Positions 10,509 through 56,780 of a stretch of 64,000 nucleotides of DNA are shown here, in pieces. The position numbers were made by a program, and so were the translations under genes. The notes beneath the pieces are model-generated. The model was not told the DNA's origin. It did not search any database and saw only the letters and a program-made list of their open reading frames with translations. This DNA comes from a virus (lineage: Duplodnaviria; Heunggongvirae; Uroviricota; Caudoviricetes), in the IMG/VR virus record IMGVR_UViG_3300033463_000001, positions 64,001-128,000 of that record; one strand, written 5' to 3'. Numbering within the stretch: position 1 is the stretch's first letter; each line of letters opens with the position of its first letter.

Positions 10509-12074
10509 ATGGATAATTTGAAGCAAAGTAACGGCCAACCAATGGAACAGGACTACATAGACAACAATTACACCCCGGACGGAATTAAGTTCTTCGGGGA
10601 GAAACACCTATGGACTGACCCGGATGCACTGCCGTTCGTATACCTAACCTTCAACGGTATCAATAAACTATTCATCGGTGACTACGGAACGAATCACCAC
10701 AAGATACACCAAGGCGACATCCGTAAGTACATGGAGGAACATGGTATGGAATATCAATGGATTGACCTGTAGCATCGCAAGAACAGGTGGTCGCATGATA
10801 TTGAGGTGGATGGCCGGGTGTGGCGCCTGATTCCTGATGCCAATAGGACACCAAGCAATGTTTTCTCATTCTGGAGTATTGGAAAGGAGATGGACGCTGG
10901 CCTGGTGAAACTGGTTGTTGACATGGTTGTTAAGGCGTTGCACATAGAAGACCAACCTATTTATATTTCGTCCGGGAGCGACGTGGTTCCATACGAAAAT
11001 GTCGGTGTTAACATAGCCGATAATGGAAATGTGTATGCGTCACACCTGCTTCCTCCTGAAAAGAAAAGAGAAGCAACTTCGGACTTTCGCAGTGCAAGAG
11101 ATAGCCGGCTTGGTAAAAAACTGACAATGTCCAACGGAAGCGAAATGACAATGGCACAATACAGAGCGCTGAAACAAACAAGTGAAAATACAATAAAAAA
11201 CATGGATAGAATACAAGGACTCCAGACAATAGTCAACGAAGCCATAACGTGCGTACTCAATGAGGCACCGGCTAAGAATGGTGACGGTTACTACATTGGC
11301 TTCGCATCACAGTTCTACACATTGTGGTACATCACCACAGTACACATCGTAGACAAGCGCGAGGAATACGACCTGACGAGGTTTAGTTATATCTGCAACC
11401 TGTCACATGACTTAGAACAGGCGAAGAGGAACGCAGAGCGTCGTGGCGTGGAAATCATCGCAGTTAACCCGGAACTAAGAGGTACACACTCTTGGGAAAG
11501 CCGCAGCAATGTCAAGGAGAAACTGGAGTTTAGTCCGGATAAGTATCAGTTTGGCAAGTGGGCTGGACAATACCTGTCATTCGGAGATGGCGACTACATG
11601 CTGTGGTACTACGACCAAATCATCAATAGCCCGTACTATGCGGAGAATAGGAAAGAGGTTGAGAAAATCCTACTGGATAACGGCTACCACATGGTGGACG
11701 GACGCGCAGTGAGCGATGAGGTTTATCAGTCAATGATTCAAAAACAGACTGATGCAGACAACGCGAAACAACTCATAGACTCCGGAGAGCCTATTGATGT
11801 CATTGCTCAGTCCAACCTCAAGGACGGATATCCGGAAGACTTTACATATTGTCGTGCAACATTAGGCAGCGAGCCAAGTGACAAATATATATGGTTACAC
11901 TTCAAAGAGTTCAAAGAGATGGTCTACCAGGGATTCCCGTACTACCTACCGGTTATCAATGGCAAGGCAAAGCGTATTAAGAATAAGGCATTGCGCATAG
12001 ACTCGTACACATACGTAGGAGATGCTGCAGACGGAATGCCGGCTATTGAAGTTCACTCATTTACTATGCTGTAA
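10509..12074 (+). CDS. multi-domain putative head-internal protein interrupted by one in-frame TAG (10770-10772)
   Basis: ORFs 10506-10772 and 10806-12074 are in the same frame with only this stop between them; internal IVNEAITCVLNE tag; FGKWAG motif. Confidence 0.55.
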
Positions 12075-13291
12075 TGTCACAATCAACACAGAATATAACA
12101 TGTAGTCCGAGACTTGTTGTTAAAAAGTTGAAGGATATATTCGGCATAAACGATGTCCGTGTACACTCTGACGGCGGTGATAAGTCGTGTCGTACGGTGC
12201 GCATACAATTCCCTGAAGGATTCAACCGAGAAGACGATGTTGTGAAATTCATGGCGTCGTGTGGCTATAATGCCGTTCGGTTAACAAAAGGGTACGCTGC
12301 TATATTTGAGTCAACTAACCAGGATAATATCCGGCAATCGCTAGGTATGCTATTCCATGTCACAACGAAACAGAATTCACTAGAGATTTTACGAAACGGA
12401 TTCGTTGTACATGACAGGCATGATGATTCTGGCTTCTCATATAACGGACGAACATATTTCTTCAAAGGTAAGGATATAACATACGACATTTGGAATGTTA
12501 TTCTTTCCATTATAGAAGATAAAAACTTCAACGACGGAACAAGTTTAACGGAAGACGACTATGTTGCAATCATCGTTGACACACAAAACATTCCGGATAA
12601 TGTACGTTTCTTTACTGATTCAATGACACCGGATGCTGTTTACACAACTGACTATATACCATCGAATGCGATAGTTACAACAATGGAAATTGAGGAACCA
12701 GAGATTGACGAACAAAAGAATATGACACAAATACAACGCATACAAAACACCGTAAATGAGTCTATTAGCAAAGTTCTATGTGAGGGTTCGTGGGGATACG
12801 AGCCAACACAATCAGACTCATTCGGCGACCAGGACTGGACACTCCTTGAGGATATGTCTGAGTTGGTCTACGACAGATGTATCTCAATGCTGAGGAAATA
12901 CGGAAAAAACGCCGTAACAAAAGGTGGTGAATATTGGGATATTATTGGTATTATAGAACATTTCTTTGAAGGCCTTCCTGATATTGACGAGACTTTTGGC
13001 GACGATAAAGGCCAGGAGCGTTACTACGTTTGGTGGAACCTAATCACAAAAAAGAAGAAGAATATCATCAAACTGTATAAAGACGCAGTAACGTATTGTG
13101 CTAATTCAAAAGAGTGGCAAGATGCTTGGGATAAACCTGATAAGATTAAAAAGTCTGCAGAAAGGCGACTAAAAACGGTTGCTAAGTATGAAAAACTGCT
13201 AAAGGATAAAATCAAACAGCTTGAAACTGACCCTGGTTATTCAACTCCGGAAGACCTCAAGATACTCAAGAAAGCCGCAAACGACTTCTAA
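12074..13291 (+). CDS. multi-domain protein with a central ADP-ribosyltransferase-fold-like domain
   Basis: LFHVTTKQNSLEILRNGF...RTYFF...YTTDYIPSNAI; internal VNESISKVLCE tag. Confidence 0.55.
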   Translation: MSQSTQNITCSPRLVVKKLKDIFGINDVRVHSDGGDKSCRTVRIQFPEGFNREDDVVKFMASCGYNAVRLTKGYAAIFESTNQDNIRQSLGMLFHVTTKQNSLEILRNGFVVHDRHDDSGFSYNGRTYFFKGKDITYDIWNVILSIIEDKNFNDGTSLTEDDYVAIIVDTQNIPDNVRFFTDSMTPDAVYTTDYIPSNAIVTTMEIEEPEIDEQKNMTQIQRIQNTVNESISKVLCEGSWGYEPTQSDSFGDQDWTLLEDMSELVYDRCISMLRKYGKNAVTKGGEYWDIIGIIEHFFEGLPDIDETFGDDKGQERYYVWWNLITKKKKNIIKLYKDAVTYCANSKEWQDAWDKPDKIKKSAERRLKTVAKYEKLLKDKIKQLETDPGYSTPEDLKILKKAANDF

Positions 13292-13324
13292 TAGAAGAGG
13301 TATTTATTGTAAAAGTGACTTTTC

Positions 13325-14413: not shown

Positions 14414-14416
14414 TTG

Positions 14417-15217
14417 ATGATAACTATGGATATCAAGATAAACGAAAAAATATTGGATAGTGTACTTAATGAAAGCGTGCACGACGTCATTAAAGAAGAT
14501 GTTGAAGACCAGGCTGTAGAAACGAAGTGTGACGAATATGCACAAATTTTGCGTAACGAGTACGAACAAGCTCAGCGTGCAGTCCGGGCGTCTAGGCCAA
14601 CGTTCCACAATGGATTGAGAGACGCTATGCAACGTCATGGGTTCACGACAGTTGGTCACGGAGACAACTGGACTGGTTTCTACGGACCTAGTAGGCTATT
14701 CTACTTCTCAGCACACCAAGACTATAATGGTGGCTGGCAGTCTCCATGGATTCTGTCTCAGAAGGTAGGAATCTGTATTGAGAAATATGGTTGGTCAAGC
14801 ATCCTGCCGTATAACCGAAGGGCTAACGCAGAGCATGGAATATACGATGTTTCAGTAAACGAGTTTGAAGAGTTCTATACGAACGCATGCAACCGCGTAC
14901 ATGATGTTATTGAAATCAGCAAACACCAAACACCGATGGAGCGCGTTGATACGTTTAGTAAGTTTACCGTATACAAAGGAGGAGGTGGTAGCTACCAAAC
15001 TATTTGGGAGTACGATAATTTCGAGGATGCCAAGAAAAGAGCATACGATTTAGCACAGGAAGAGTGTACTAAAGGCAAAGAGCGGAGGGATGATATTAGT
15101 AGATATTACCATTCAAAACCGGTTGATATCACTAACAACCACCCGCACGACATTATCGCATTTGAGTTCTATCTATACGATGAGCACTCTTATTATGTAG
15201 CAGTATCTGGAGAATAA
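14417..15217 (+). CDS. putative head-internal protein
   Basis: N-terminal IKINEKILDSVLNESVHDVIKE tag. Confidence 0.7.
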   Translation: MITMDIKINEKILDSVLNESVHDVIKEDVEDQAVETKCDEYAQILRNEYEQAQRAVRASRPTFHNGLRDAMQRHGFTTVGHGDNWTGFYGPSRLFYFSAHQDYNGGWQSPWILSQKVGICIEKYGWSSILPYNRRANAEHGIYDVSVNEFEEFYTNACNRVHDVIEISKHQTPMERVDTFSKFTVYKGGGGSYQTIWEYDNFEDAKKRAYDLAQEECTKGKERRDDISRYYHSKPVDITNNHPHDIIAFEFYLYDEHSYYVAVSGE

Positions 15218-15230: not shown

Positions 15231-15710
15231 ATGAATAAAAAAGTACAAATAGGACAAAACGAATTAACCTACCTCGTTGCCGAGTCAATGATTAGGAACA
15301 TTACCGGAGAGGCAACTATTAACGAAGGCGGTTTCAAAAATGCAATCGGAGCACTTGCTGCTGCAGGAATAATGACAGCATGTGGCCATGGTTCATTCTA
15401 CGGAAATCAGCCAACAGACCCAACAGAACAAACACAAAAACCATACGCAGACCAACAATATGAAAAATTCGACTGGAGTCTGATTACAGATGAACCAAAC
15501 CAGGGTTTTATCTATGACATGTATACAGGCTGTGCTAATAGCGGTAGTAGGACAATTGCATGCATAATTCAAAAGGATAAATACTGCTGGCGCTACTATA
15601 TTCCAGAGGAAATGAATGCAGAAATTGGTGAAAAATACAGGAATCGAGAGCCTGTTGATATTCGTGATTTCGAAGCGTTCATTGGATGGAAACCATACGA
15701 CCAACATTGA
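15231..15710 (+). CDS. putative head-internal protein with a hydrophobic, lipobox-like segment
   Basis: KVQIGQNELTYLVAES...INEG then AIGALAAAGIMTAC. Confidence 0.7.
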   Translation: MNKKVQIGQNELTYLVAESMIRNITGEATINEGGFKNAIGALAAAGIMTACGHGSFYGNQPTDPTEQTQKPYADQQYEKFDWSLITDEPNQGFIYDMYTGCANSGSRTIACIIQKDKYCWRYYIPEEMNAEIGEKYRNREPVDIRDFEAFIGWKPYDQH

Positions 15711-20859: not shown

Positions 20860-22176
20860 ATGAATACTACTGTTACATTAGAAGAAGCTAAACGTGGCAC
20901 TAACATGTTTATCTCGGCAAAGAACAACAAAACGCTATCAATCGTCGAGAGTACACTTTCACAAATTGGCAATGGCGCATATGCAAAGGATAACAAGACT
21001 TTGTATTTGCATGTTAGCCCGGCACAAGGTAAAACTCTGAAAGAATCACTGCTGTTTGCGTTGGAACAAAATGGTGTTAACACAGCAAACGTAAAGATTT
21101 CTAGAATGACAACGAACGAATCACCGTTGACTCGTTTCGCTCTCAAAGAGGGTGTTGTGGCTCCTTCTCGCGATAATGCTAATACGAAACGCATCCGTCT
21201 TACACGCGAAGGATTGAGTCGTCTTGTTACAAAGGCAGTGAATGAGGCATTGAGTAAGCGCGACCCGAAACTCGCGTCGCTTCCGTTTGACCAACAAGTT
21301 TCAATCTTGACCAATGAGGCAAGAAAGCACATGATACAGGAGGGTACTAGCAATTTCTTCCTTATCAACTCAGATACATACCACGCACTACCAGAGCCGG
21401 AAGACGAAAATGGTAATCGGAAAGAATGGGATGATGTGGATTATGACTTCGCTATTGAGGATGTTCGTGAAACATTCCTGAGTAACGGATGGGATACGTG
21501 CGACAAAGATAAACGTTATTCGTACGACTCTTATTCTATAGGTGTCGACAAAACATGCGAACCGGAGAGCTTTGAGACGCCAATCTACATCATCGTGCTG
21601 GTTTGTCCGGGATACTATGAGTCTGCAACTATCGACTACGAAATCGTATGCGACTTTATGAAGCTGTCAGACTTCAACAGCATCGAGGAGTTTGCTGCTG
21701 AGTGTGTTGAATGGTGTGGTTCTTCTGAAACTGATGAGGATAAACAAAAAGAAATCGCAGAGGTTGTAGCAAGTATAAATGCAGGCATTGCTAACTTCGA
21801 AGAGGTAGTAGAAAAATGCACGGTTCCGTATGGTGTTTATGCTCGTTTTAGTAACGGTGAAACAATGTATAAAAACCTGCGCGAAGAGGATGTTGAGCAT
21901 GGAGCTACCGATGAGAATGAAGATATATACAGTTACTCGTATTTTGCTAGCGAATTAGCAAAATTTGGATGGTCATTCCATGACTCATATGTTGACGACA
22001 ACGACGGTAGTGTTATCTTCGCAATCGACAAAGACAGACCCGAAGGAGTTGAGCTTGACGAATTGAAAGCTAAACTTCGCGAGATATACGGTAATAATAT
22101 AAAGTTTGGAACTCGTACAGCAGTACAGGCACCAGAACTAAAATCAACTGTTGTTAAACTGATTTATGCCGACTAA
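20860..22176 (+). CDS. multi-domain acidic putative head-internal protein
   Basis: TATTTAT upstream; RIRLTREGLSRLVTKAVNE tag; several [ILV]xE sites. Confidence 0.7.
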   Translation: MNTTVTLEEAKRGTNMFISAKNNKTLSIVESTLSQIGNGAYAKDNKTLYLHVSPAQGKTLKESLLFALEQNGVNTANVKISRMTTNESPLTRFALKEGVVAPSRDNANTKRIRLTREGLSRLVTKAVNEALSKRDPKLASLPFDQQVSILTNEARKHMIQEGTSNFFLINSDTYHALPEPEDENGNRKEWDDVDYDFAIEDVRETFLSNGWDTCDKDKRYSYDSYSIGVDKTCEPESFETPIYIIVLVCPGYYESATIDYEIVCDFMKLSDFNSIEEFAAECVEWCGSSETDEDKQKEIAEVVASINAGIANFEEVVEKCTVPYGVYARFSNGETMYKNLREEDVEHGATDENEDIYSYSYFASELAKFGWSFHDSYVDDNDGSVIFAIDKDRPEGVELDELKAKLREIYGNNIKFGTRTAVQAPELKSTVVKLIYAD

Positions 22177-23146
22177 CCAATACGACATAATAAAAAGAGT
22201 TGTCGACGAGGCGCTTGTGCATGTTTTACACGAAGACTGCGGAGGTGCCACGACGACTTTCTTTGTTGGTGGAGAGGGTGGATTTGCATACGATAAAAAC
22301 GCATTACCACAAACAAAAGACCCGGCATACGTCCATCGCAAAAAAGGTGGTATAGCATGTGACAGAATTGATTCCGGAAAGACAACTGTAGAGGAGTCCA
22401 CAATACCACTAAAAGACGTGGTGGATAAATACTATCAAGATGCAGATGAACAGGGAATTATTGCTGCACTTGATTTAGACCCAACGTCACCAACTGGTGC
22501 ACAATTTAAGCGTACTCCGGACGGAGAGATGGTACTTGACATAGAAGCATCTAAGAAAGGTAGATTTTTCGCTTGGATAATGAAAAACTACGAAATCTAC
22601 TGTGACGATATGATGTGGTGGGAGGACGACCTTAAAGATGCCTTGAGTAAATTCGTAAAAGCGTGCCAGGTGAACTATGACGGTATTGACAGGGATATTA
22701 ACAAATATTCAATTCCAGGTCTCATAGACACCATGTTCGCTATCGACCCTTCTGATTTACAAACTAAGAGCGAACGCTGTGAACAGTTTAAAACGCTATA
22801 CGAGGATGACGAATGGGTTATCTACAAACCACTAACTCATGATGCAGCGCGCTTCCTTGGACACGGTTCACGTTGGTGCACTTCAGCCGGTGATAACGGA
22901 ATCCATAAAGGTACGGAATCATTCAACGCATACGCAGAACAAGGCGGTATATACATCAACATGGATAAACGGACAGATGCGCTTTATCAATTTAATTTCA
23001 CATTTGGTGAATATCGCGACTCAGAAAATACAGAAATCATCCCTAACGAACGTGATTTCACAAAGATAGCGCAAAAAATAGGCATGCCAGAAGGTGCATT
23101 CCAATGGTACATGAATAACATTACAGAACTGCAGAGTTCGAAATGA
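22166..23146 (+). CDS. putative head-internal protein with a C-terminal G.RWCT (PcfJ-like) domain
   Basis: IIKRVVDEALVHVLHE tag; WVIYKPLT..AA..LG.GSRWCT...F..Y. Confidence 0.7.
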   Translation: MPTNQYDIIKRVVDEALVHVLHEDCGGATTTFFVGGEGGFAYDKNALPQTKDPAYVHRKKGGIACDRIDSGKTTVEESTIPLKDVVDKYYQDADEQGIIAALDLDPTSPTGAQFKRTPDGEMVLDIEASKKGRFFAWIMKNYEIYCDDMMWWEDDLKDALSKFVKACQVNYDGIDRDINKYSIPGLIDTMFAIDPSDLQTKSERCEQFKTLYEDDEWVIYKPLTHDAARFLGHGSRWCTSAGDNGIHKGTESFNAYAEQGGIYINMDKRTDALYQFNFTFGEYRDSENTEIIPNERDFTKIAQKIGMPEGAFQWYMNNITELQSSK

Positions 23147-23178: not shown

Positions 23179-23661
23179 ATGGAACAGACGAAAATCGTAC
23201 GCCTTACTGAAGAGGAGTTTGTAGGCGTTATCAAAGAATCAGTAATGGAGATTCTTGCAGAGAATGGTGTTGCCTTGAACGAAGACTTCTTCGACAACCT
23301 AAAGAGCGGTGCAAGGGCTTTCTTCGGAAAAGGACCTGGTGATAATAACGCCACATCCAAAGCTGCTCGCACTCAGTCTGGAGGCCTGAACCTTAAAAAG
23401 CGTTTCGACGCAGCAAAAACTGGTTTTGAGATGCGTAAACAAGGTGACGAAATTGGGCAGGTTGTTCAATTCCTGAAAGATTTGGTTGCAAAGAAAGAGC
23501 TTGACCCATCGTTCACTATCGCCCAGTTGATTGGTGGCAAGTTGAATGGTAACAAGTTTGGTGTTCTTGACGCAATGAAAAACAACCGTTCTGCGCAAGC
23601 TTCGAGGGCAATCAACAAAATCTACCCGAAAGTAGAAAAACAAGCAGCTCCTCAAGCGTAA
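23179..23661 (+). CDS. putative head-internal protein
   Basis: KIVRLTEEEFVGVIKESVMEILAE...LNE tag. Confidence 0.75.
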   Translation: MEQTKIVRLTEEEFVGVIKESVMEILAENGVALNEDFFDNLKSGARAFFGKGPGDNNATSKAARTQSGGLNLKKRFDAAKTGFEMRKQGDEIGQVVQFLKDLVAKKELDPSFTIAQLIGGKLNGNKFGVLDAMKNNRSAQASRAINKIYPKVEKQAAPQA

Positions 23662-27289: not shown

Positions 27290-27985
27290 ATGGCAAATAC
27301 AGCAAAATTCACACAGGAATTGTTAGATGAAATGGTAGCCCGCTCTCTGGAGAAATATCGTATCAAAGAAGGATATGGTGAACAAGATAAAAAATGGGGT
27401 GATTTAAAGAACCAGGTTGTTGGCCGTATCAAAGATGCATTCCATGGCGTAGAGCAGGAACCACAAGGCACATCACGCAACGTAGGTCAAACGCTTGGTA
27501 ACTACGTAAAAGACAATTTCGGTAAAGACCAAGGATTCGGTTTGAAGAAGAAATTGCGCCAAGGTAAACGTGCATTGCAAGTTGGTGCCGGTGCCCTCGG
27601 AGCTGCAACAATTCCGGCGGCAGCTGCTGCTGGTAAAGTAACACGTGCAATCCAACAAACTCCGAATAAAGCGCGCGAAATTCTTCACAATATTATCGGC
27701 GAGGACGAAGAGAAATTGACAAACTGGACTGTTCCTACAGAGTACACACACTTTGCAATACGTAAACGCGATAACAAAATCGTAAACGGATGGGATTATA
27801 GTGATGTAGAACCTGAACAATTGCGCCAATTCCCGCGTGATTATTTCACAGTAGACCTTGAAGATATGGGCGTCGACCCGAAACTATTTAAAATTGCAAC
27901 GAAGAGAGGCTGTCTCAGCAAACTCGGCATCGACCCGTTTGACCCTGAGAACTGGAGCAACCTTTCTGCCGAAGATGTATTATAA
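27290..27985 (+). CDS. putative head-internal protein
   Basis: TATTTAT upstream; KFTQELLDEMVARSLEKYRIKE tag; Ala/Gly hydrophobic segment. Confidence 0.7.
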   Translation: MANTAKFTQELLDEMVARSLEKYRIKEGYGEQDKKWGDLKNQVVGRIKDAFHGVEQEPQGTSRNVGQTLGNYVKDNFGKDQGFGLKKKLRQGKRALQVGAGALGAATIPAAAAAGKVTRAIQQTPNKAREILHNIIGEDEEKLTNWTVPTEYTHFAIRKRDNKIVNGWDYSDVEPEQLRQFPRDYFTVDLEDMGVDPKLFKIATKRGCLSKLGIDPFDPENWSNLSAEDVL

Positions 27986-29146: not shown

Positions 29147-29173
29147 TATTTATTGGTAGTAATTAGCACAAAA

Positions 29174-29791
29174 ATGATTTTAACAGAAAACGACTGGAAG
29201 ACGATATCCGAGCGAGTGGTGAATCGAATCAACGAATCAATGAGTCGCGACGACATCATGCGTGCCGTTGAGCGTCTTAGCAGGTCACAAGGTAAATATG
29301 GACGCCTGCTGCAATTCTTGAACAGCGGCTCAGAGGATGCAGAACTTGTACTGCAAGACCTTGAAGACCAATGTTTCCCTGATGTTGTGTCGATGGTTAT
29401 GTATATTGAAGAGAGTAAAAAGGCAACAAAAGGCCAACAGCTCACAGAAGCGAGTACCATTGATGTGAACCAAGGCATATGGGATGAGTATGATATCCCA
29501 TGGAACGAAGTTGATGATGAACCGGAGAGGTACAATGGTATTTGGTATATCTCTGTAGAGTTCTTCGATTATACAGCATTCCTTGGTGAAATTGATATCG
29601 ATAGACAGTTCGGTACTCTTAAAGACTGTTTGGATTTTGCACAAACAATCGATAGAGAAATGATATTTGATATTTGCAATGAAGAAATCTCAGACGAAGG
29701 ATTTACGTCAATTTCATTGAACATCAACTGTCAGGAAGAGCGCGCTACATATGAAGTAGCAAATACAAAGCTTTTCGTACCGAATAAGTAA
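29174..29791 (+). CDS. putative head-internal acidic protein
   Basis: TATTTAT upstream; MILTENDWKTISERVVNRINE tag; LSRSQGKYGRLL domain. Confidence 0.7.
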   Translation: MILTENDWKTISERVVNRINESMSRDDIMRAVERLSRSQGKYGRLLQFLNSGSEDAELVLQDLEDQCFPDVVSMVMYIEESKKATKGQQLTEASTIDVNQGIWDEYDIPWNEVDDEPERYNGIWYISVEFFDYTAFLGEIDIDRQFGTLKDCLDFAQTIDREMIFDICNEEISDEGFTSISLNINCQEERATYEVANTKLFVPNK

Positions 29792-30833: not shown

Positions 30834-30898
30834 TTTTTGAAATTGTTTATCTTTAAATAAATAGTCTTTCGGTGTATTTATAGGTGACAACATTTGCT

Positions 30899-31234
30899 AT
30901 GAGAGAAGTAGTTATCACACAACATCAATATAACGCTTTGCTTAACGAGGCTGTATCTATGCTTCCGGAGCGTGTTAAACAGATAGTAGCCGCCTTAGAC
31001 TCGAATTTCATGGTCAATAGAGACAAGAATTCGCAGGATTATGGGGCTGTGTATCGTATTGATTCTAGTGGACGCGCTATCGCTAAAGTTGATGATGTTG
31101 AAGTATTTTACAAACTACAGGGACTTTGTCAAACTATTGCAGATAAGGCAACCAGAGATAGCCTTCTTAAAAAAGTCATAAAGGACTGGTATGCCGGCTC
31201 AATTAAAGGCTCTCTGATGTCTGTTGCTCTTTAA
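30899..31234 (+). CDS. putative head-associated protein
   Basis: TATTTAT upstream; MREVVITQHQYNALLNE tag. Confidence 0.65.
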   Translation: MREVVITQHQYNALLNEAVSMLPERVKQIVAALDSNFMVNRDKNSQDYGAVYRIDSSGRAIAKVDDVEVFYKLQGLCQTIADKATRDSLLKKVIKDWYAGSIKGSLMSVAL

Positions 31235-36553: not shown

Positions 36554-37189
36554 ATGACACAGAAATCATATGTAATCACAGCCGGTGAGATACGGGAACA
36601 AATGCAAGAAAGCCTAAATAGGATGATTGCAGAAAGAAATGTCATTAAAGTTCCTGGTGTTCAGCAACCTCCTGTGAATATACCACAAGAGCCAGCAGCT
36701 CCTGCTCCGGCCGAATCTTTACCGCAACCTGATGCTAATGCTGCAATAGACGATGCTGTGAATCAGCCTCAGTTTGATGCAGGTGTTGAGGCAGACCCGG
36801 ATACCGACCACAAAAAATATCTCCAACAGTTAACTGGTAAGCTTTCAACCGAGTTGCAAAAGTTTGTTAACGAAAATCCGAATGAAGCAAAGGAGATATG
36901 CAAATATATCCTTGGTATGATTGTCAAACAAGCAAGCAAGCCGCTCGATGACGCCGATAAGAAAGAAATTATTAAGAAAATCAACTCAGTAGAAGCAGGT
37001 GATGAGAGCGGCGAACAAGCTGAGCCTGGCGCACAGCAGCAGGAAATAAACCTCCCTCCTGTAGGTGAATCGGTTATTAAAGAGACTTTGCTTGATACGA
37101 ATCAACCGGAGCCCAAATCTGAAAGGCAAGACCAAAAGCAGAGAACAGCACCAACTGCTAAGAATAGACCATACAAACCAAAATTTTAA
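36554..37189 (+). CDS. putative head-associated protein
   Basis: YVITAGEIREQMQESLNRMIAE tag; FDAGVEAD...LQQLTGKLS domain. Confidence 0.7.
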   Translation: MTQKSYVITAGEIREQMQESLNRMIAERNVIKVPGVQQPPVNIPQEPAAPAPAESLPQPDANAAIDDAVNQPQFDAGVEADPDTDHKKYLQQLTGKLSTELQKFVNENPNEAKEICKYILGMIVKQASKPLDDADKKEIIKKINSVEAGDESGEQAEPGAQQQEINLPPVGESVIKETLLDTNQPEPKSERQDQKQRTAPTAKNRPYKPKF

Positions 37190-40690: not shown

Positions 40691-42691
40691 GTGGCAAATA
40701 AGACTTTGACAATATATCAACGGATGGACAGAGTCCTTAACGCTGATTCTCCCGCAGACAGAAGTGAACCACGTCGCGTCAACACGTACAACATTACACC
40801 GAGTGTGTCAGACGATATCCTTTATCGCACAGACAACAAAGAAGAGTACGACCTTAAAAAGTTGACGATGCAGCAGGATGCATTCCTTGCTCGCCAGTGG
40901 AAAACTTCAAGTCACAACATCTCTGCTAAGCAACAGCTTAACGGACTTACGTTGCTGAACCTGATGTATCGCGACGCTGACCTCATGGATACATTCCCTG
41001 AGATTGGTGCTGCATTGACGTTATATTCAGACGAAGCAACCACACTCGACCAGCAAGGTAAGATGTTTAATATCACATCTTCTTCGCCACGAGTTAAAGC
41101 AATCCTTGAGGACTTGTTTGTTAAACGGCTCAACTTGAACGTATGGGCGCCGCGTATTATCCGTAACATGTGTAAATACGGTAACACGTATATGCTCATG
41201 AAGATGCAAAGTAATCGAGGCGTTGAAGCATGGCGTGAGATGCCGGTATATGAGATGCAACGTAATGAAGATGGCGTATCTCCGTACTGGTACAGCAACG
41301 ATAATGCCAAGAATGATAAAAGTACTAAGGTTCCGTCGACGACATTCGTTTGGATGGGTAACACGGACGGCCAAACTCCGGCTAGTGAGTTTAAGGATTG
41401 GCAAATAGCGCACTTCCGTATTCTCACAGATTCTGTTTTCTTACCGTACGGGCAATCCATATTAAACTGCGCGCGTAGGCATTTTAGGATGCTCTACATG
41501 ATGGAGGACTCCATGCTCATCTACCGCCTCGACCGGTCTATTGAGCGCCGAGTATTCAAAGTATATGTTGGTGGCATCGATGATAAAGACGTTCCGGCTT
41601 ACGTTGACCAAGTTATTAACCAAACAAAGCGTGGTTCTATTATTGACCCACAGACCGGACAAATCGACATTCGCAAAAACTGGGCTTCTGTTGTAGATGA
41701 TTACTACATCCCGGTTCGCGACATGAACGCACCTAACCCGATTGAGACATTGCAAGGAGCACAGAACCTTACTGCCATAGACGACATAAAGTTCATGCAA
41801 AACAAAGTGTTCACGGCACTGCGTGTACCGAGGGCATTCTTGAGCTTTGACGAGTCTACCGGAGAAGGTAAAAACCTTGCTATGATGGACGTTCGCTTCG
41901 CGCGTGCTGTCAATAGGATTCAGTTGGCATTCATCGAGGAGTTGACACGTGTTGCAATTATCCACCTCATACTTCTTGGTCTCAAGGATGAGCTCACCAA
42001 TTTCTCTATATCAATGAACAACCCGTCATCTCAGGCTGACACTCTTGCATGCGAATTGATGCAAAAGAAACTCAGCTTGGTAAGGGATGCGGTTCAAGAT
42101 AACGGAAACGGCATACAAACGCTGTCACTGCAACGCGCGTTGAAGATGTTCCTTAACTTCTCCGAGGAAGATATTAAAGAAAACTTTAATGAGATACGTC
42201 TTGAGAAAGCACTTGCCGAGGAATTGAATAAGACGCCTGAGATTATTAAACGCACACATATCTTCGACCCGGTTGATAGGCTGTATGGCGAACCAGGTGC
42301 TGAATATTCAAGCGCTGGTGGTGAAGATGGAGATGGCGGTCCTGGTGGAGCACCTGGCGGAGGAGGCGGTGGCTTCGGAGGCGGAGGTGACTTCGGTGGC
42401 GGGCTAGACGCAATCTCTGGTGATGAAGGTGCCGGTGAAGTAACAGGCGAAGAGGGCGAAGCACCAATGGGTGAAGTAACTCCTGCCGGAATGGCTCCTG
42501 AAGCACCAGCACCTGGAAATCCAGGAGAGACTACAGCTCCTGAACCTCCGGTAAATCCGAATGAGGGTAAAAAACCAAAGGGAAATGGTAAACTACTCAC
42601 AGAGGATAAAGTTCTCTTAGATACCAAGAATCTCATGCAGAACGCTTTTACCGAAATGATTAGTGAAATCGACAAACAAATAGAAAGCTAA
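40691..42691 (+). CDS. portal protein (T4 gp20-like)
   Basis: PYGQSIL, MEDSMLIYRL.R..ERRVF..VG, DYYIP.R, IETL.GAQNL, ALRVP; Gly/Pro acidic tail. Confidence 0.93.
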   Translation: MANKTLTIYQRMDRVLNADSPADRSEPRRVNTYNITPSVSDDILYRTDNKEEYDLKKLTMQQDAFLARQWKTSSHNISAKQQLNGLTLLNLMYRDADLMDTFPEIGAALTLYSDEATTLDQQGKMFNITSSSPRVKAILEDLFVKRLNLNVWAPRIIRNMCKYGNTYMLMKMQSNRGVEAWREMPVYEMQRNEDGVSPYWYSNDNAKNDKSTKVPSTTFVWMGNTDGQTPASEFKDWQIAHFRILTDSVFLPYGQSILNCARRHFRMLYMMEDSMLIYRLDRSIERRVFKVYVGGIDDKDVPAYVDQVINQTKRGSIIDPQTGQIDIRKNWASVVDDYYIPVRDMNAPNPIETLQGAQNLTAIDDIKFMQNKVFTALRVPRAFLSFDESTGEGKNLAMMDVRFARAVNRIQLAFIEELTRVAIIHLILLGLKDELTNFSISMNNPSSQADTLACELMQKKLSLVRDAVQDNGNGIQTLSLQRALKMFLNFSEEDIKENFNEIRLEKALAEELNKTPEIIKRTHIFDPVDRLYGEPGAEYSSAGGEDGDGGPGGAPGGGGGGFGGGGDFGGGLDAISGDEGAGEVTGEEGEAPMGEVTPAGMAPEAPAPGNPGETTAPEPPVNPNEGKKPKGNGKLLTEDKVLLDTKNLMQNAFTEMISEIDKQIES

Positions 42692-45800: not shown

Positions 45801-45801
45801 T

Positions 45802-48776: not shown

Positions 48777-49478
48777 ATGGCTCAGAAGAAACTACAGGAA
48801 ATAAAGAAAGGTGAAACCGGAACCGGTCTCTTAATTGAGAACGACGGTTATATCTCTGTTGACTTTGGTAACAACAAAGCCATTTGCGAAGGTATTACAA
48901 AAGATGGTGGCTGGAATGTTCCAAATCCATTCATCCTGGATACTGTCTTCCAAAAGTATGACATCAAGAATGCTAATGGCCGTATATATCCGAAAGAAGT
49001 CCTGCAGCGCGAGGTTGATAAATATCAACAAAAAATTCGTGAGCGCAGGGCCACAGCAGAAGCAGACCACCCAAGCGAGACAACCATTAGCCTACGTGGA
49101 ATTTGCTTAAACGTTGAGGAATTACACTGGGAAGGACAAACGCTTTGTGGAAAAATCAGACTTCTAACGAGTGAGGGATTTAGACGATACGGTGTTATCA
49201 GTAATCAAGGCGACCAGGTAGCAAACCTCATTCTTTCTGGAATCAAAATTGGCGTATCATCGCGTGGCGTTGGTTCGGTCGAACAGAAGTACGGCCAAAC
49301 AATCGTTGGTAATGATTATGAATTGATTTGTTTCGATGCCGTAACAGAACCGAGCACGCCGAATGCGTGGATTATGACTGAACCGGAAACAGAAAAGCAA
49401 GCATATGTGGAAAGTAAGCAATCCAAAGACTCTATTTTGGCAGAAAAAATCAACAAAATGGAGCTAATCCTACTTTAA
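48777..49478 (+). CDS. prohead protease (T4 gp21-like)
   Basis: NANGRIYP, EADHP, GVSSRGVGS, FDAVTEPSTPNA. Confidence 0.93.
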   Translation: MAQKKLQEIKKGETGTGLLIENDGYISVDFGNNKAICEGITKDGGWNVPNPFILDTVFQKYDIKNANGRIYPKEVLQREVDKYQQKIRERRATAEADHPSETTISLRGICLNVEELHWEGQTLCGKIRLLTSEGFRRYGVISNQGDQVANLILSGIKIGVSSRGVGSVEQKYGQTIVGNDYELICFDAVTEPSTPNAWIMTEPETEKQAYVESKQSKDSILAEKINKMELILL

Positions 49479-49582
49479 TTCATAAAAATTATGCAGGAAA
49501 ATTGCTTTTTTCATTGTGTTAGCATATTTATAGGTAGATAACGGTATGCCTAAGTATACCTAATTACTGAATAAGAAAGATT

Positions 49583-50911
49583 GTGACGAACATGAATTTG
49601 AGACCGGAAGTTGTCAAAAAGTCTTTGGACGCAGTAGACAACATGAAAAAGGAAATAAACGAAAACACATCTGCTGTGCTGAAGAAGCTGCTCTCTGAGG
49701 CTGTTAAGGCAGACGTTGCTGCGGTTGACAATGAGGATACACCCTCAGATGTCAATACCGACGGCAGCAAGGTGGAAGGTACTACTGACTCCGGCAAGAC
49801 AAATGATGAGCAATCGAAAGAAGAGGCTACGCAGACACCTGACGAGAATCAGGATGGCGACACCAACACAGAAGATTGGTCTGAATTTGATTCCTTTAAG
49901 GGGGAAGATGGGAAGTACGACCTTACAAATGCAAGTGACGAAGACGTCGTTAGAGTGTTTAAAAAAATGGACAATACCGATAAGCTACGCATCGTGCAGG
50001 ACGGCGATAAGGTAGAAATCCATGACGGAGATACTGGAGCAGATTATATCATCGACTTGGGAGAAGAAGTAAGCAACAACCCAATTCAAAAAGAAAACAC
50101 CAATAAAAGTATGAGTAATACCAAATTACAAACTATTTATGAAGTTGCTTTGGGTTATACTGATTCATACCAAAGCAAAGATGCAATGACAACTCCTCCG
50201 AACACGGAAGTTGCACCGAACCAGCATCGCGATTTGAACGCTGGCATTCCTACCGGAAGCGAAAAGCCTTGGGCTAAACCTAACAAAACTGCAAAGCCGT
50301 TCGATAACAAGCAAAATGTAACCGAAGAGGCAAGCGGCAGTGTAATTGAGGATGAGGCTCAGGTAGAAGAAGTTGCAGCACACGCATCAGTTAAGTCAAC
50401 TACGGTTGTTAAGAGCGACCCGACGAACCCGCAAGGACGTCCTCACCGTGGTACCAAACCTGCAGGTGCTGTACAGACAGAAGGTAAGAAATTCGCTGTT
50501 ACAGAGGCTCAGCTCGCGAAGATTCAGAAAATCTTTGAGGAGAACGAAAGCCTGAAGAAATCGCTTGTGAAGTTCCGCAATGAACTCAATGAGGCTGTTG
50601 TTACTAACGTGGCCACCACACTTGCGCTCAAGACCATCCTTGAGAACACGACTACAGAGAATGAAAAGAAAGACATTGTCAATCGTTTCAAGACTGAAGC
50701 TAAGTCCATCGATGGCGCAAAGGCACTGTATGAGAGCATTAGCCGTGAGTTGAAAAAGACTCCTGCTGACAATCTCGCCGAGAGCATCAACCAAAAGATT
50801 GTGGCCGGCAGTTCTGCACAACAGATTAACGAAGCCAAGGAGCAAGCACTGCAAGCAGAAAATGAAAGCATTGCTCGCATCCAGGACATGATGCACAGGG
50901 TTTGTAAGTAA
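49583..50911 (+). CDS. prohead scaffold/core protein (gp22 position)
   Basis: Between protease and MCP, acidic, coiled C-terminus, many [ILV]xE sites. Confidence 0.8.
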   Translation: MTNMNLRPEVVKKSLDAVDNMKKEINENTSAVLKKLLSEAVKADVAAVDNEDTPSDVNTDGSKVEGTTDSGKTNDEQSKEEATQTPDENQDGDTNTEDWSEFDSFKGEDGKYDLTNASDEDVVRVFKKMDNTDKLRIVQDGDKVEIHDGDTGADYIIDLGEEVSNNPIQKENTNKSMSNTKLQTIYEVALGYTDSYQSKDAMTTPPNTEVAPNQHRDLNAGIPTGSEKPWAKPNKTAKPFDNKQNVTEEASGSVIEDEAQVEEVAAHASVKSTTVVKSDPTNPQGRPHRGTKPAGAVQTEGKKFAVTEAQLAKIQKIFEENESLKKSLVKFRNELNEAVVTNVATTLALKTILENTTTENEKKDIVNRFKTEAKSIDGAKALYESISRELKKTPADNLAESINQKIVAGSSAQQINEAKEQALQAENESIARIQDMMHRVCK

Positions 50912-50949: not shown

Positions 50950-52737
50950 ATGAATACATTTCTTCAATCCGGCCTGTTCGGCAACATGGAGCTCGACCAG
51001 GCAAAGAAAATGCGTGAAGCCATCACCGAACGTTGGGACAAGTTTGGCTTCTGCGAAGGTTTGAGCGGTGTCATCAAAGAGAACATCTGCCAAATCTATG
51101 AGAACGAGGCTAAGCACCTCATCAAGGAGGCTACTAACTCCGCTAGCTCTGGCTCATTCGAGACTGTAGTATTCCCGATGATTCGCCGTGTCTTCAGCAA
51201 GCTGTTGGCAAACGACATCGTGTCTGTACAGGCCATGAACCTGCCTATCGGTAAGGTATTCTTCATCCTTCCTGTTACATCGAAACGTGAGGAAGTTCAA
51301 GAGGGCGTATTCGAGCACGCTGGTCTTATGGGCTACAACCGTAAGGACAAAAACCAGAACGGTGCTGACACTCCCCGCTACTACCTCCCGGATGACGTTG
51401 TAAACCAGGGTGCTAAGCTCGTACAATTCTATGAGACGACTCTGTACGACCTCTACTACAATGACTTCCTTTATGACGAGTCTAAGGGTCGCGTAACCAT
51501 CGCCCTCGGTTCTGTTACTCCGGTTACTCTGGAGAAGAAACAATTCAAGCCGATTGCGAACACAGCTGACATCAAGACAGCTAACGACGGTACTGTTCAC
51601 AGCCTGATGCTGGAGGTTAGTGGCTTCAATAGCTACAACGCTGGTAAGCTGACTGGTCCTGACGGTAACGAGATGGACACTGAGGAGTTCCTCGCTTCTA
51701 TGAAGGTTTGGACACCGTCTGCAATCACAGCTGTTAGCGGTAGTGCAGCTTTCGAGGTTGGCGAAGAGATTCCGATGCACGTAATGACCCAGAAGTACGG
51801 TAAGGGTATTGTTGAATACAATGCACCGGTTGACGTAAACGGTAAAATGTTTATCGAAATCGACCTTACAAAGCCTGGTAAGGGTGAGGAAGGTTACGTA
51901 GGTGTTGACAAGGCTCAGTTGGCTAGCGTTCTCGCAGCTCTGAAGATTTCTTGGAAGCGATATGACAGCCTTGAGCTTGAGACCGAAATCGGTGAGGTTT
52001 CATTCAAACTTGACTCTATGGAGGTATCTGTTGTTCCGCGTAAGCTGCGTGCAACTTGGTCTCCGGAGCTTAGCCAGGACGTTGCTGCTTTCCACAACAT
52101 CGACGCTGAGGCTGAGTTGACCCAAATGCTTTCTGAGCAGGTAGCAGGTGAAATTGACCGTGAAATTCTTCGTGACCTCCGTAAGGTTGCTCCTTGGCAA
52201 GGTCGTTGGGATAGGAACGGTTGGAGGCGCCTTGAGGCATTCTCTACCAACTATACCCAGAAAGACTGGAATCAAGAGCTGATGACCGTTATCAACGAGA
52301 TTTCTGCAATGATTCACAAAGCTACCCTGCGTGGCGGTGCGAACTACATTGTAGTATCTACAGAGGTTAGCGCTCTTCTGAACAACCTTGAGTACTTCCA
52401 TGTAACTGACGCTAGCGCTGAGCAAGACCAGTACAACATGGGTATCGAGCGTATCGGTTCACTCCAGGGACGTTATCAGGTATATGTTGACCCGTATGCA
52501 CCTCACTGGTCTATCATCGTAGGTCACAAGGGTAAATCATTGCTCGACACAGGTTATATCTACGCTCCGTACGTACCTATGGCTCTGACCCCGACAATGT
52601 ATAATCCAGAGAACTTCGCTCCGGTTAAGGGCATTATGACAAGGTATGCGAAGAAGTGCGTAAACAACCGTTACTTCGGACACGTACGTGTAGACGGTCT
52701 CCGTATCTACGGTCACGGAACTCAATCGTTCCGTTAA
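50950..52737 (+). CDS. major capsid protein (T4 gp23-like)
   Basis: PMIRRVF, IVSVQAM..P.G, RKLRATWS.EL.QD..A.H.IDAEAEL, EIDREI, YAPYVP, GIMTRYA; LIKE/A candidate maturation site. Confidence 0.96.
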   Translation: MNTFLQSGLFGNMELDQAKKMREAITERWDKFGFCEGLSGVIKENICQIYENEAKHLIKEATNSASSGSFETVVFPMIRRVFSKLLANDIVSVQAMNLPIGKVFFILPVTSKREEVQEGVFEHAGLMGYNRKDKNQNGADTPRYYLPDDVVNQGAKLVQFYETTLYDLYYNDFLYDESKGRVTIALGSVTPVTLEKKQFKPIANTADIKTANDGTVHSLMLEVSGFNSYNAGKLTGPDGNEMDTEEFLASMKVWTPSAITAVSGSAAFEVGEEIPMHVMTQKYGKGIVEYNAPVDVNGKMFIEIDLTKPGKGEEGYVGVDKAQLASVLAALKISWKRYDSLELETEIGEVSFKLDSMEVSVVPRKLRATWSPELSQDVAAFHNIDAEAELTQMLSEQVAGEIDREILRDLRKVAPWQGRWDRNGWRRLEAFSTNYTQKDWNQELMTVINEISAMIHKATLRGGANYIVVSTEVSALLNNLEYFHVTDASAEQDQYNMGIERIGSLQGRYQVYVDPYAPHWSIIVGHKGKSLLDTGYIYAPYVPMALTPTMYNPENFAPVKGIMTRYAKKCVNNRYFGHVRVDGLRIYGHGTQSFR

Positions 52738-52763
52738 TCCGAAAGGATTAATCTCATAAAATT

Positions 52764-52815: not shown

Positions 52816-52847
52816 TTTGCATATTTGAAAAAAATTACTTATCTTTG
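52816..52847 (+). promoter_or_regulatory. host sigma-A type promoter for the endonuclease gene
   Basis: TTTG-N20-TATCTTTG, with a spacer resembling those of the early promoters. Confidence 0.75.
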
Positions 52848-52866
52848 TGTCATAATTTGATTTATT

Positions 52867-54531: not shown

Positions 54532-54593
54532 CGCGTCTGATAGTGTTGTTATTCCGTTTCTTTAGGTATTTATTATAGAGGATATTTACGAAA

Positions 54594-56021
54594 ATGGTAT
54601 ATAAGACATATCTGGACAAATTCAATACTATAATGAGTGACTCGGAGGTCAGTGTAGGCTTGTCTCCGGTTGAGTTTATGTACTATGGTGGCGGTATATC
54701 CCGCGCATTGGTGCATTTTAGCCTATCTAAGCTCACGAATTTGGTTAATGGTAAAGTTGTACCAGATACATCAAAACTAACGCACAGACTCAAAATATAC
54801 ACCTCAGGGGCGATTGAATATAACGGGAAGTGGAATACAGAGTATATCAATAACGTCTCAGACGCAGGAACAATGTTGAGAGCCGGTAATTGCTCAATGA
54901 TATTGTTTAAACTTCCGGAGCCGTTCGAGAGTGGTAATGGTTACGACTACAAAAAGCCCATCGCAGGCATATCCGCATTAGCAACGAACGGAGCAAACTG
55001 GTATAATGCTTCAACTGGTAAAAAGTGGATTAGCGGTAACGGCGTGTACACCACAGACTATCTGAGCAGAGAGTTAGATAAGTTCATCGACGGAGAAAAG
55101 AGTATCATCATCGCCACACAGGACTTCACGGTTGGTAATGAGATACTAGACGTTGATATCACAGATTATGTAAACGCATTGTTAGCCGGTGAGGAGGAGA
55201 ATAACGGAATAGGAATTGCATTTACGCCAACACTTGAGTGGATGGAGCTAGATGATACTACGCGCTACATATCTTTCTTCACTCACGAGACACACACGTT
55301 TTTTGAACCGTACCTGGAGTCACGCTATGATGATGTTATCAACGACGACCGCAACGATTTCTACCAGGGGAAGACAAACAGACTTTATCTCTATTGCAAC
55401 ATCGGTGGTGAGTTGAGTAATCTTGACGAGATGCCCACGTGTTCCATTGACGGTGTAGGTGAGTTTGAAACGAAGCAAACAACGAAAGGGGTTTATTTCA
55501 TTGAGGTTGACGGTAAAACATCAAAGGAACTGGCCGCAGGTGTTATGTTTTACGACACGTGGTCTAATCTGAAATTCAATGGTGCTGATTTGGATGATGT
55601 GGAAATGGACTTTGTTGTAAAGCCGTATAAAAATTTCTTCAATTTAGGTAATGAGATTACGCACCGCGAGAAATACGTCCCGGAGCTATACGGTATCAAA
55701 GACAGTGAGATAATCAAACGTGGCGACGTGCGCAAACTGAACTTTGTTGCACGTGTTCCATTTACACGGAATCAGTTCGCGCTTATTGATAATATGGAGC
55801 TGCGCCTGTACGTTAAAGATGGCCTGCAAGAGTTTGATGTCATTCCATACGACCGTATTAACAAGGCCTTTGCTGAGAATTACTATACCATCGACACAAA
55901 CGAATTGGTGCCGGAGAAATACTACATCGATGTCAAAGTTACAACGGACGGATGCACAATCATCCATCACGACTTGGTTCACTTTAGCATCGAAAACAAT
56001 ATAACAAATAAATCCATATAA
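54594..56021 (+). CDS. putative structural protein
   Basis: TATTTAT upstream, beta-rich, FFTHETHTFFEPYLE motif. Confidence 0.7.
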   Translation: MVYKTYLDKFNTIMSDSEVSVGLSPVEFMYYGGGISRALVHFSLSKLTNLVNGKVVPDTSKLTHRLKIYTSGAIEYNGKWNTEYINNVSDAGTMLRAGNCSMILFKLPEPFESGNGYDYKKPIAGISALATNGANWYNASTGKKWISGNGVYTTDYLSRELDKFIDGEKSIIIATQDFTVGNEILDVDITDYVNALLAGEEENNGIGIAFTPTLEWMELDDTTRYISFFTHETHTFFEPYLESRYDDVINDDRNDFYQGKTNRLYLYCNIGGELSNLDEMPTCSIDGVGEFETKQTTKGVYFIEVDGKTSKELAAGVMFYDTWSNLKFNGADLDDVEMDFVVKPYKNFFNLGNEITHREKYVPELYGIKDSEIIKRGDVRKLNFVARVPFTRNQFALIDNMELRLYVKDGLQEFDVIPYDRINKAFAENYYTIDTNELVPEKYYIDVKVTTDGCTIIHHDLVHFSIENNITNKSI

Positions 56022-56024
56022 GAC

Positions 56025-56780
56025 ATGTCTAAAACAACAAAACAAGAAGAAAAAAAGTACGAGCTCACGCACTCGCAGTTGAAAAATATTGTGAGAGAGG
56101 GTATCAAACGTTACAAACTCGCTGAGGCAAACGACCAATTCGAGCAAGAGTGTCGTGCTGAGGCTGACGAGCTCATTCAATCTTTCGAGCCGGAAGCAAC
56201 GAAAATTGAGGTAGGCGATGAGTGGTTCTCTGTTCAATTGAGCAATAAGGACGAAGCACATCCGTTTAAGGTATGGATGGATATCAGCATCCGTGACAAT
56301 GACGTATATGTAGACTGGAACCAATACATCTTCCACCTTAACAACAGCGATGACGTTGTGCGCAAGATGTTCCAGGAAGACACAAGTATGTTCGAAGCCT
56401 GCGATTCAGAGGCTGTCTGGGCACTTGAGAACGGTGGATACATCTACCAAGATGACAACGCCAACTGGCACCGTACAGAGAAAAAAGACACTCCTGCTGC
56501 AGAAGGCAGTGAAACAACACCTGAGGTTAAAACCGAAGAGGTAGCAGCTGCTCCTTCAGAACCTAGCAATCCTGGCATTATGACCGGTGGCGGTGCGCCG
56601 AAGAATGAAGACCCGGCAGAGAAAGAGTTTATCCGCACAAAATGCCGCGAGTTTGCAAAACAAAACATCTGGCCACACTTCATTGCATACAACATGGAAA
56701 CAGGAGAGGCTATTCCGTGTAGCAACTATGCAACAGCAGCAACATACAAAGCAAAAGGTATGAAAATTGCCGCACTGTAA
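56025..56780 (+). CDS. putative head-internal protein
   Basis: KYELTHSQLKNIVREGIKRYKLAE tag. Confidence 0.7.
   Translation: MSKTTKQEEKKYELTHSQLKNIVREGIKRYKLAEANDQFEQECRAEADELIQSFEPEATKIEVGDEWFSVQLSNKDEAHPFKVWMDISIRDNDVYVDWNQYIFHLNNSDDVVRKMFQEDTSMFEACDSEAVWALENGGYIYQDDNANWHRTEKKDTPAAEGSETTPEVKTEEVAAAPSEPSNPGIMTGGGAPKNEDPAEKEFIRTKCREFAKQNIWPHFIAYNMETGEAIPCSNYATAATYKAKGMKIAAL

Follow-up and report, generated by a model that had tools for sequence, protein, structure and literature searches.

Background

The internal proteins IPI, IPII and IPIII of T4 and other T-even phages, as well as Alt, carry an N-terminal leader, the capsid-targeting sequence (CTS), which is removed by the prohead protease gp21 (PMC5694885, PMC12373910); the CTS that T4's internal proteins bear is taken here from Mullaney & Black 1996, as far as that work is reported in PMC9958956. 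Ip1-3 of T4 and the Dar proteins of P1 travel in the virion (PMC12373910, PMC9958956), and Ip1-3 inhibit GmrSD enzymes on entry (PMC12373910). Here a 26-residue peptide is described, indicated as "the tag", which recurs on otherwise unrelated proteins of a giant, T4-like rumen phage, whose head module is of the T4 type. The analyzed stretch of 64,000 bases, indicated as "the window", corresponds to bases 64,001-128,000 of one 327,393-bp viral contig (42% G+C; completeness 93% by CheckV). The tag is modular, N-terminally placed, under selection at the protein level, and shares the promoter-like motif of the head genes. It is probably, with considerable room left for doubt, a portable prohead-addressing peptide, trimmed by the gp21-type protease: an analogue of the T4 CTS, longer than it and not homologous to it.

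In phiKZ, 201phi2-1 and SPN3US, a protease related to gp21 removes long propeptides from head and ejection proteins, with (S/A/G)-x-E as its site (PMC5694885, PMC10052503). InPase and LPD domains mark the phage "polyvalent proteins", predicted to be packaged in the virion and injected (PMC5512222); for these, processing by an in-protein MPTase domain was proposed by Iyer, Burroughs, Anand, de Souza & Aravind 2017 (PMC5512222). Specific to the present case are the particular 26-residue tag, its breadth, and its presence on ArdA and on a SAM lyase. No mention of the tag was found in the literature, including the papers on Jug phages and bS21 phages.

Results

The tag in related phages and in databases

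A search of IMG/VR with the major capsid protein (MCP) yielded 315 related stretches at 50-66% identity, and 80 loci were kept for a survey. When a hidden Markov model (HMM) trained on the window was run on these loci, 83 matches reached at least 10 bits, against 0 in shuffled sequences; 63 of the 83 tags begin at residue 5 or earlier, and the open reading frames (ORFs) carrying them have a median length of 132 amino acids (aa). The logo of 230 distinct tags gives the consensus K-K-x-I-R-L-T-E-S-D-L-H-x-I-[IV]-K-E-S-V-x-x-[IV]-L-x-E. Its anatomy is that of a short extended h-x-h segment, an N-cap (T-E-S-D or similar) and an amphipathic helix of 16-20 residues, ending in [ILV]-x-E. Three glutamates are conserved, E9 (98%), E18 (79%) and E26 (98%), all within [ILV]-x-E triplets: L-T-E in 99% of the copies, [IV]-K-E in 79% and [LI]-x-E in 97%. 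After E26, no column exceeds 20%, which marks the boundary of the tag.

A profile search of 1.84 billion cluster representatives returned 8,764 proteins at E <= 1e-3, 778 of them at E <= 1e-10, each representing a cluster at 50% identity; almost all of these tag-bearing clusters are without annotation. No model of Pfam, PHROG or NCBIfam overlaps the tag, even at lenient E limits (0.1 to 1), and in an Atlas search with the tag alone its single helix matches many folds. Complete relatives (295-410 kb) contain 4-19 tags apiece, and of the tag-bearing records that were found independently, all three with a completeness of at least 80% encode a gp23-type MCP: the tag is restricted to phages with T4-type heads. 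On the T4 genome, the tag profile finds nothing at E <= 1. Its search of T4, RM378 and Flavobacterium phage immuto gave 0 matches, and that of Microcystis phage Mel-JY01 and LR756508 gave one and four weak ones, respectively. A tblastn search of the tagged proteins against 50,697 GenBank phage records produced either no match or only matches at E about 4-5.

The tag might be no functional protein module at all: helices may resemble each other by chance or through their composition, or the segment may be a conserved RNA or translation-initiation element located at the 5' ends of genes. The motif is indeed short, and several members in the window are degenerate. Yet matches at or above 10 bits are absent from the shuffled sequences, and the tag-bearing clusters number in the thousands. 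In addition, codons are free to vary at the conserved columns (all six Leu codons and both Ser families are used), which indicates selection on the protein level. An RNA-level or translation-ramp explanation was rejected because of this codon diversity, together with the existence of internal and C-terminal copies. Such an origin is hardly credible.

Many proteins of the relatives contain two or three tags, about 108 residues apart, whose internal copies often keep a Met or an Ile-Asn-Lys-Lys lead-in, as if tagged genes had been fused. Two tags are also present in 131 of the 149 best-scoring database proteins (P0095-P0244), the internal copy usually following E-S-K-N-[MI]-N-K-K. By sequence, the double-tag proteins look as if two tagged genes had been fused in frame, with some of the former leader region kept. 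Only 5 of the 149 multi-tag proteins have any Pfam domain. Short matches to PF25734, a RelB-like putative antitoxin family, are found in L038:2908-4575, where the match is located just upstream of an internal tag, and in two multi-tag proteins.

The tag in the phage under study

The original prediction, made by inspection of the window, had quoted 12 segments as copies of the tag. All 12 are found in the sequence at the named genes, and they align gap-free, once anchored on a T/S/N residue: hydrophobic residues occupy positions +4, +7, +8, +12, +15 and +16, and Glu positions +10 and +18 (+14 in a short variant). When the proteome was scanned with a gapless, 26-column HMM seeded with the 12 segments, non-seed ORFs were recovered at 11.8, 10.5 and 9.0 bits, the best match in 30 shuffled proteomes averaging 4.8 bits. 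The iterated HMM converges on 23 of 476 ORFs. When each candidate is left out of the model in turn, 15 of the 23 still beat every non-member ORF, and 18 are at rank 2 or better. A second model was built from the tags of the relatives, without any window sequence ("relatives-only HMM"): seven ORFs of this phage score 6 bits or more, against a mean of 0.1 in 40 shuffles. Four of them are in the window (23179, 56025, 15231 and 20860) and three outside.

The prediction of at least a dozen unrelated carriers thus has the count right, although 4-5 of the quoted segments are weak or unsupported in the leave-one-out test. Among the weak ones are the Dps-like protein 30120-30893 (2.7 bits), 36554 (1.2 bits) and 29174 (0.6 bits). 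The segment F-A-V-T-E-A-Q-L of the scaffold gene (50486..50563, +) was rejected as a tag: when left out, it falls below noise (-2.1 bits, rank 164). N-terminal, internal and C-terminal placements, all anticipated, do occur, the N-terminal one being overwhelmingly dominant: of 19 supported tags, 13 have their first residue among positions 1-11, against an expectation of 1.8 (P = 9e-11). Twelve of these 19 tags end in [ILV]-x-E at tag columns 23-25. Paralogy of the carriers was rejected by blastp after masking of the tag: no pair of carriers is alike at E < 0.05, and their cargo parts are therefore regarded as unrelated to each other.

The tags and candidates of the window are reported below; leave-one-out (LOO) scores are in bits.

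10332..10412, +: C-terminal tag-like helix of the 82-aa protein 10167-10415; LOO 6.3, rank 0
14426..14503, +: N-terminal tag of the 263-aa protein 14426-15217; LOO 6.9, rank 0
15237..15314, +: N-terminal tag of the 159-aa protein 15231-15710; relatives-only HMM 9.7 bits; LOO 4.4, rank 2
21187..21264, +: internal short-variant tag, residues 110-134 of the 438-aa protein 20860-22176; ends V-N-E
22166..22240, +: N-terminal tag of the 326-aa protein 22166-23146; iterated model 18.1 bits; LOO 5.7, rank 1
23191..23268, +: N-terminal tag of the 160-aa orphan 23179-23661; relatives-only HMM 21.3 bits
25184..25261, -: C-terminal tag, residues 336-361 of 362, of the protein 25178-26266; LOO 6.1, rank 0
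27296..27373, +: N-terminal tag of the 231-aa protein 27290-27985; LOO 5.3, rank 1; TATTTAT 30 nt upstream
29168..29245, +: weak degenerate N-terminal candidate of 29174-29791; TATTTAT site at 29147
30357..30434, -: doubtful internal tag-like segment of the Dps-like (DUF5856) protein 30120-30893; LOO rank 6
30902..30979, +: N-terminal tag of the protein 30899-31234 (about 111 aa); LOO 9.1, rank 0; promoter-like site at 30875
36563..36640, +: weak degenerate N-terminal candidate of the 211-aa protein 36554-37189; ends I-A-E; TATTTAT 29 nt upstream
56052..56129, +: N-terminal tag of the 251-aa protein 56025-56780; relatives-only HMM 16.3 bits; LOO 7.6, rank 0

The tag of 23179-23661 is the best match of this phage to the canonical tag (E 4e-6, strict canonical alignment). 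No homologue of this protein was found beyond its own sequence; in an AlphaFold 2 (AF2) model, poor and from a single sequence (pLDDT 42), residues 11-28 form a helix, ending at the terminal E. The protein 56025-56780 is encoded just downstream of a conserved 475-aa head-region gene. Three [ILV]-x-E sites, at columns 7, 16 and 24, are contained in the tag of 14426-15217, while that of 22166-23146 consists of the helix part only, without the leading strand, and the helix of 10167-10415 is without the terminal [ILV]-x-E. The tag of 20860-22176 fails the leave-one-out test, where the model is made from the window only, yet reaches 7.0 bits with the relatives-only HMM; its short variant is common in relatives. 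A TATTTAT site lies 31 nt upstream of the gene 25178-26266. In its ORF translation, the candidate 29174-29791 contains L-T-E, I-S-E and I-N-E triplets. As to the Dps-like protein, its DUF5856 match is under the Pfam cut-off; relatives have DUF5856 proteins with two clear tags (P0060).

Internal half-tags, resembling the second half of the tag only, are seen in two adjacent proteins of 400 aa, 10806-12074 (at residue ~128) and 12074-13291 (at ~212). They read I-V-N-E-[AS]-I-x-x-V-L-x-E and have borderline scores (4.3 and 3.4 bits). Seventeen similar half-tags, one per 163-aa repeat, occur in a 4,271-aa S/T-rich repeat protein from the database (P0107).

Head genes and the TATTTAT motif

The head genes expected of a CTS system of the T4 type, namely a gp21 protease, a scaffold or core protein and a gp23 MCP, are all present in the window:

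38762-40633: large terminase
40691..42691, +: gp20-family portal (PF07230, 3e-73)
42721-43605: p294, the gene after the portal, a position kept in most relatives inspected
48777..49478, +: gp21-family prohead protease (phrog_207, 1e-41; PDB 5JBL, T4 gp21, 6e-17)
49592-50911, +: scaffold-position gene, assigned by position and conservation
50950..52737, +: gp23-family MCP (PF07068, 4e-73)

In the alignment of the protease with PDB 5JBL, all three triad residues (His, Ser, Asp) are retained. For the scaffold gene, the family-library search gave no match. The relatives have terminase, portal and p294 first, then one to three tagged ORFs of small size, and after these the genes for protease, scaffold and MCP. 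In the phage under study, the slot between portal and protease contains p294, p157, sugar-nucleotide genes and p204, the tagged genes being dispersed instead.

A promoter-like motif, G-TATTTAT-[AT]-G-[GT]-TAG, is located 25-30 nt before the start codons of head, large structural and tagged genes, with 39 strict and 63 relaxed sites genome-wide. The p294 gene, the protease gene and the scaffold/MCP unit each have the motif ahead of them, and in 10 tagged genes it stands immediately in front. Sites in the window are:

49525..49543, +: motif ahead of the scaffold and MCP genes
10133, 10497, 20769, 26297 (-), 27260, 29147, 30875, 35097, 36525, 42696 and 48600: other motif sites

Nearly all carriers had been expected to belong to TATTTAT-led units. 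With the relaxed motif, [ACG]-TATTTAT-[AT]-[GAT], counted as leading same-strand units, this is true of 17 of the 22 tagged genes, compared with 105 of the 454 untagged ones (odds ratio 11, P = 3e-7): a clear enrichment, from which five minus-strand candidates, having no motif, are excepted. Host-type promoters concentrate in the minus-strand early block. In kind, the TATTTAT motif resembles the single-element late promoter of T4.

Candidate cleavage sites

In T4, gp23 is cut at L-T-E65, before A-E-I-G-G, and gp24 at L-R-E10, before S, as located on the T4 genome; Alt is cut at I-T-E6 and L-T-E619 (PMC5694885). By register with mature T4 gp23*, the maturation site of the MCP of this phage is placed near residue 45. 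Two sites are predicted, both kept in 74 relatives:

51079-51081: I-K-E44 of the MCP
51127-51129: I-K-E60 of the MCP, followed by A-T

The end of the tag has the same form as these predicted maturation sites. The likeness extends to the last 12 residues of the MCP propeptide, h-h-x-x-x-h-x-x-h-h-x-E, arranged as in the second half of the tag. The motif of the gp21-type protease is found at the end of the tag, and cleavage there is predicted from the motif.

The same triplets may be read as a timed signal for degradation or processing, by the prohead protease or by a host AAA+ protease, limiting the lifetime of the tagged proteins in the producing cell, with no packaging involved. Up to three Glu-ended triplets per tag, in a phage encoding a protease that is, by sequence, of active type, agree with it. 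Proteases of the T4 family, however, act inside the assembled prohead (PMC9958956), and a degron leaves unexplained both the presumed late synthesis of anti-restriction cargo (see below) and the position of tagged genes in the head module. This explanation is therefore considered very unlikely.

Co-assembly of the tag with the scaffold had also been proposed. A weak likeness exists to a helix at the scaffold N-terminus, not to the scaffold segment originally quoted:

49661..49735, +: tag-like helix of the scaffold N-terminal domain; its last residue is an E that hardly varies, and a variable acidic run comes next

The glutamate, E48, is conserved in 90% or more of 26 aligned scaffolds. The density of [ILV]-x-E is modestly raised in the scaffold (3.2%, rank 33 of 345 proteins); neither this value nor that of p294, given below, is decisive. 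A co-variation of tag length and scaffold helix length between sub-clades was considered and dropped, the N-domains of the scaffolds aligning gap-free. The protein p294 has the 9th-highest [ILV]-x-E density of the 345 (4.1%); from sequence, it is a candidate for a core protein that the protease would degrade.

Cargo of the tagged proteins

Most carriers are orphans. Two, encoded outside the window, are anti-restriction proteins, and a third has a recognizable domain:

G000:C1:285963-286751 (L007): tag and ArdA (PF07275, 1e-31; 111 bits, cut-off 27)
G000:C1:143719-144435: tag and SAM lyase (PF23780, 7e-14)
G000:C1:167257-167649 (103257-103649 in window coordinates): tagged 130-aa DUF6926 protein (PF21977, 4e-13)

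The assignment to ArdA is given both by a score above the Pfam cut-off and by the fold: in the AF2 model (pLDDT 93), residues 37-262 superpose on 2W82 with Z 11.3 and a root-mean-square deviation of 2.6 over 157 residues. The tag forms a separate N-terminal helix (residues 13-33), outside the ArdA fold. ArdA proteins from bacteria and plasmids, 162-185 aa long, have the conserved P-x-V-Y-V-G-T-Y motif at their very beginning; in the nine closest homologues, all on large contigs, this motif is preceded by the tag and a linker of 6-12 residues. The ArdA case shows that the tag is portable. A cut after its last Glu would shorten the N-terminus to the length found in native ArdA.

The tag might also act as a self-associating amphipathic helix, promoting oligomerization or coiled-coil formation for the function of its own carrier, with no targeting role. 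Its helix does have hydrophobic residues spaced i, i+3/i+4, and many carriers are small, helical orphans. Yet the tag is added to ArdA, whose plasmid homologues work without it, and the identity retained across unrelated cargo, with E9 and E26 nearly invariant, is far above what a generic coiled coil needs. The strict N-terminal position and the co-regulation with head genes also contrast with such a function, which we judge improbable.

The ArdA and SAM lyase genes belong to arrays headed by TATTTAT, outside the block of host-type early promoters, and promoters of the early type are absent from their vicinity. Since an anti-restriction protein made late is useful only if packaged, this context favors packaging. 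The tags of relatives stand in front of, or on either side of, InPase, LPD11, NUDIX, WG-repeat and YodL domains. The DUF6926 protein is, by association, a candidate injected effector.

A further alternative is that the tag is an address or docking peptide which is not cleaved, and is directed to some other partner, such as the tail or neck, a chaperone of the phage, or a host machine to which all the effectors would have to bind. That cargo proteins with nothing else in common carry a peptide almost without variation argues for one common partner, without naming it; similarity to the scaffold is weak, and C-terminal and internal copies exist. In contrast, the tagged ORFs of the relatives cluster between portal and protease, tagged and head genes have the promoter motif in common, and the point where the module ends coincides with an [ILV]-x-E such as the T4 protease cuts. 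Injection is also what would be expected of cargo types like ArdA, SAM lyase, InPase and LPD11 (PMC5512222). On this evidence, docking to another partner appears unlikely, though it deserves to be kept in mind.

Interpretation

Capsid targeting followed by cleavage, as originally suggested, agrees with the head module, the MCP sites, the tag boundary, the promoter motif, the gene slot and the cargo; homology to the T4 CTS is not part of the picture. According to the mechanism proposed here, tagged proteins would be made from the same TATTTAT-type, presumably late, promoters as the head genes, and the tag would draw them into the core of the assembling prohead, possibly by imitating the helix of the scaffold N-terminal domain. 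The gp21-type protease would then trim them after the Glu of the [ILV]-x-E triplets, of which a tag may offer up to three (L-T-E, V-K-E and L-x-E). The released cargo, including ArdA and the SAM lyase in this phage, would stay in the head and enter the next host with the DNA. The tag may also serve as a joint between modules.

Several observations weigh against the prohead-addressing interpretation. Head localization, binding partner, cleavage and injection are all inferred, from sequence, and the late nature of the TATTTAT promoter is presumed from the genes it leads, the five minus-strand candidate carriers being without it. The tags of the phage under study are a degenerate version of the tag of its clade, only three places matching the strict canonical model at E <= 0.05, and the canonical tag is not found in any cultured GenBank phage. 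The [ILV]-x-E tripeptide is common, starting at 1.8% of the positions of the proteome, and its mere presence therefore carries little weight. Leader removal cannot describe those tags that lie internally or at the C-terminus. The resemblance between scaffold helix and tag is weak (hhalign P 0.0014, probability 17%). Finally, the tag helix of ArdA is modeled with a pLDDT of 84-93, and could pack on the cargo rather than hang free.

A broader view can be put forward only tentatively, and may well prove too bold: the tag would be the address label of a huge, uncatalogued "injectome" of Bacteroidota jumbo phages, in which a scaffold-mimicking helix would load thousands of unrelated effectors, many of them anti-defence, into T4-type heads, and tag copies would act as protease-cut joints, taking fused or polyvalent effectors apart in the capsid. 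On this view, the tag could provide a handle for mining injected anti-defence proteins in gut and rumen metagenomes.

If the prohead-addressing interpretation is true, one 26-residue motif marks, from sequence alone, the proteins that enter the cell with the phage DNA, throughout a large clade of uncultured jumbo phages from gut, rumen and freshwater. The class so marked would be that of the proteins likeliest to overcome the defences of the host within seconds of the start of infection. Tagged ArdA and SAM lyase are a concrete, testable example. The tag would also become a tool for loading foreign proteins into the heads of Bacteroidota phages, as the T4 CTS is in E. coli.

Other genes of the head region

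The gap between portal and protease, where relatives carry small tagged ORFs, is filled in this phage by sugar-nucleotide or glycosyltransferase-like genes (44127-47918). Directly 3' of the MCP gene, a homing endonuclease gene is found; several relatives feature one or two HNH/homing-endonuclease copies after the MCP gene, and the T4 homing endonuclease segD holds an equivalent place, between genes 23 and 24.

44127-45800: DUF4422 protein (PF14393)
45802-46920: presumably UDP-galactopyranose-mutase-like, a guess from the N-terminus only
46917-47918: presumably epimerase-like, on the same basis
52867-54531: 554-aa HNH/homing-endonuclease gene (phrog_3339, 3e-85)

Comparison with known systems

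Short, portable amphipathic helices that bind the interior of a shell, or its scaffold, are known also outside viruses, as the cargo-loading peptides of encapsulins and the encapsulation peptides of bacterial microcompartments. In encapsulins they are usually C-terminal; no protease removes such peptides, and their sequences are unrelated to the tag.

With the system proposed here, phiKZ, 201phi2-1 and SPN3US share a giant genome and a large set of ejection proteins inside the head that are processed after Glu; the N-termini of paralogues stay identical, and propeptides carry multiple sites. Unlike the tag, these propeptides are of 100 residues or more and specific to a family of paralogues; they belong to another lineage and have a different P3 preference. 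With the polyvalent proteins, the tagged proteins of the relatives share the InPase, LPD11, NUDIX and YodL domains and the arrangement of modules in strings, interrupted by multiple tags (P0003, P0018). In the tagged proteins, however, the separators are copies of the tag, the presumed processor is the prohead protease, and no polyvalent protein is seen in the window. The small ORFs located between portal and protease recall T4 gp67 and gp68, whose slot is held in relatives by the one to three tagged ORFs, although these are without detectable homology to them.

The T4 CTS offers the closest parallel: an N-terminal peptide, common to unrelated proteins and ending in (I/L)-x-E, in a phage with gp20-, gp21-, gp22- and gp23-type head genes, where the cargo includes anti-restriction proteins acting on entry, and the tagged genes are variable and fast-evolving. 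The tag differs from it in length (26 residues, against about 10-20), with no similarity to the T4 leader; in the number of carriers, about 18-23 per genome against 3-4 in T4; in having up to three candidate cut sites; and in being found also internally, between modules, and at the C-terminus. Known from sequence alone, it recurs across protein clusters that number in the thousands and come from jumbo phages of Bacteroidota that are uncultured.

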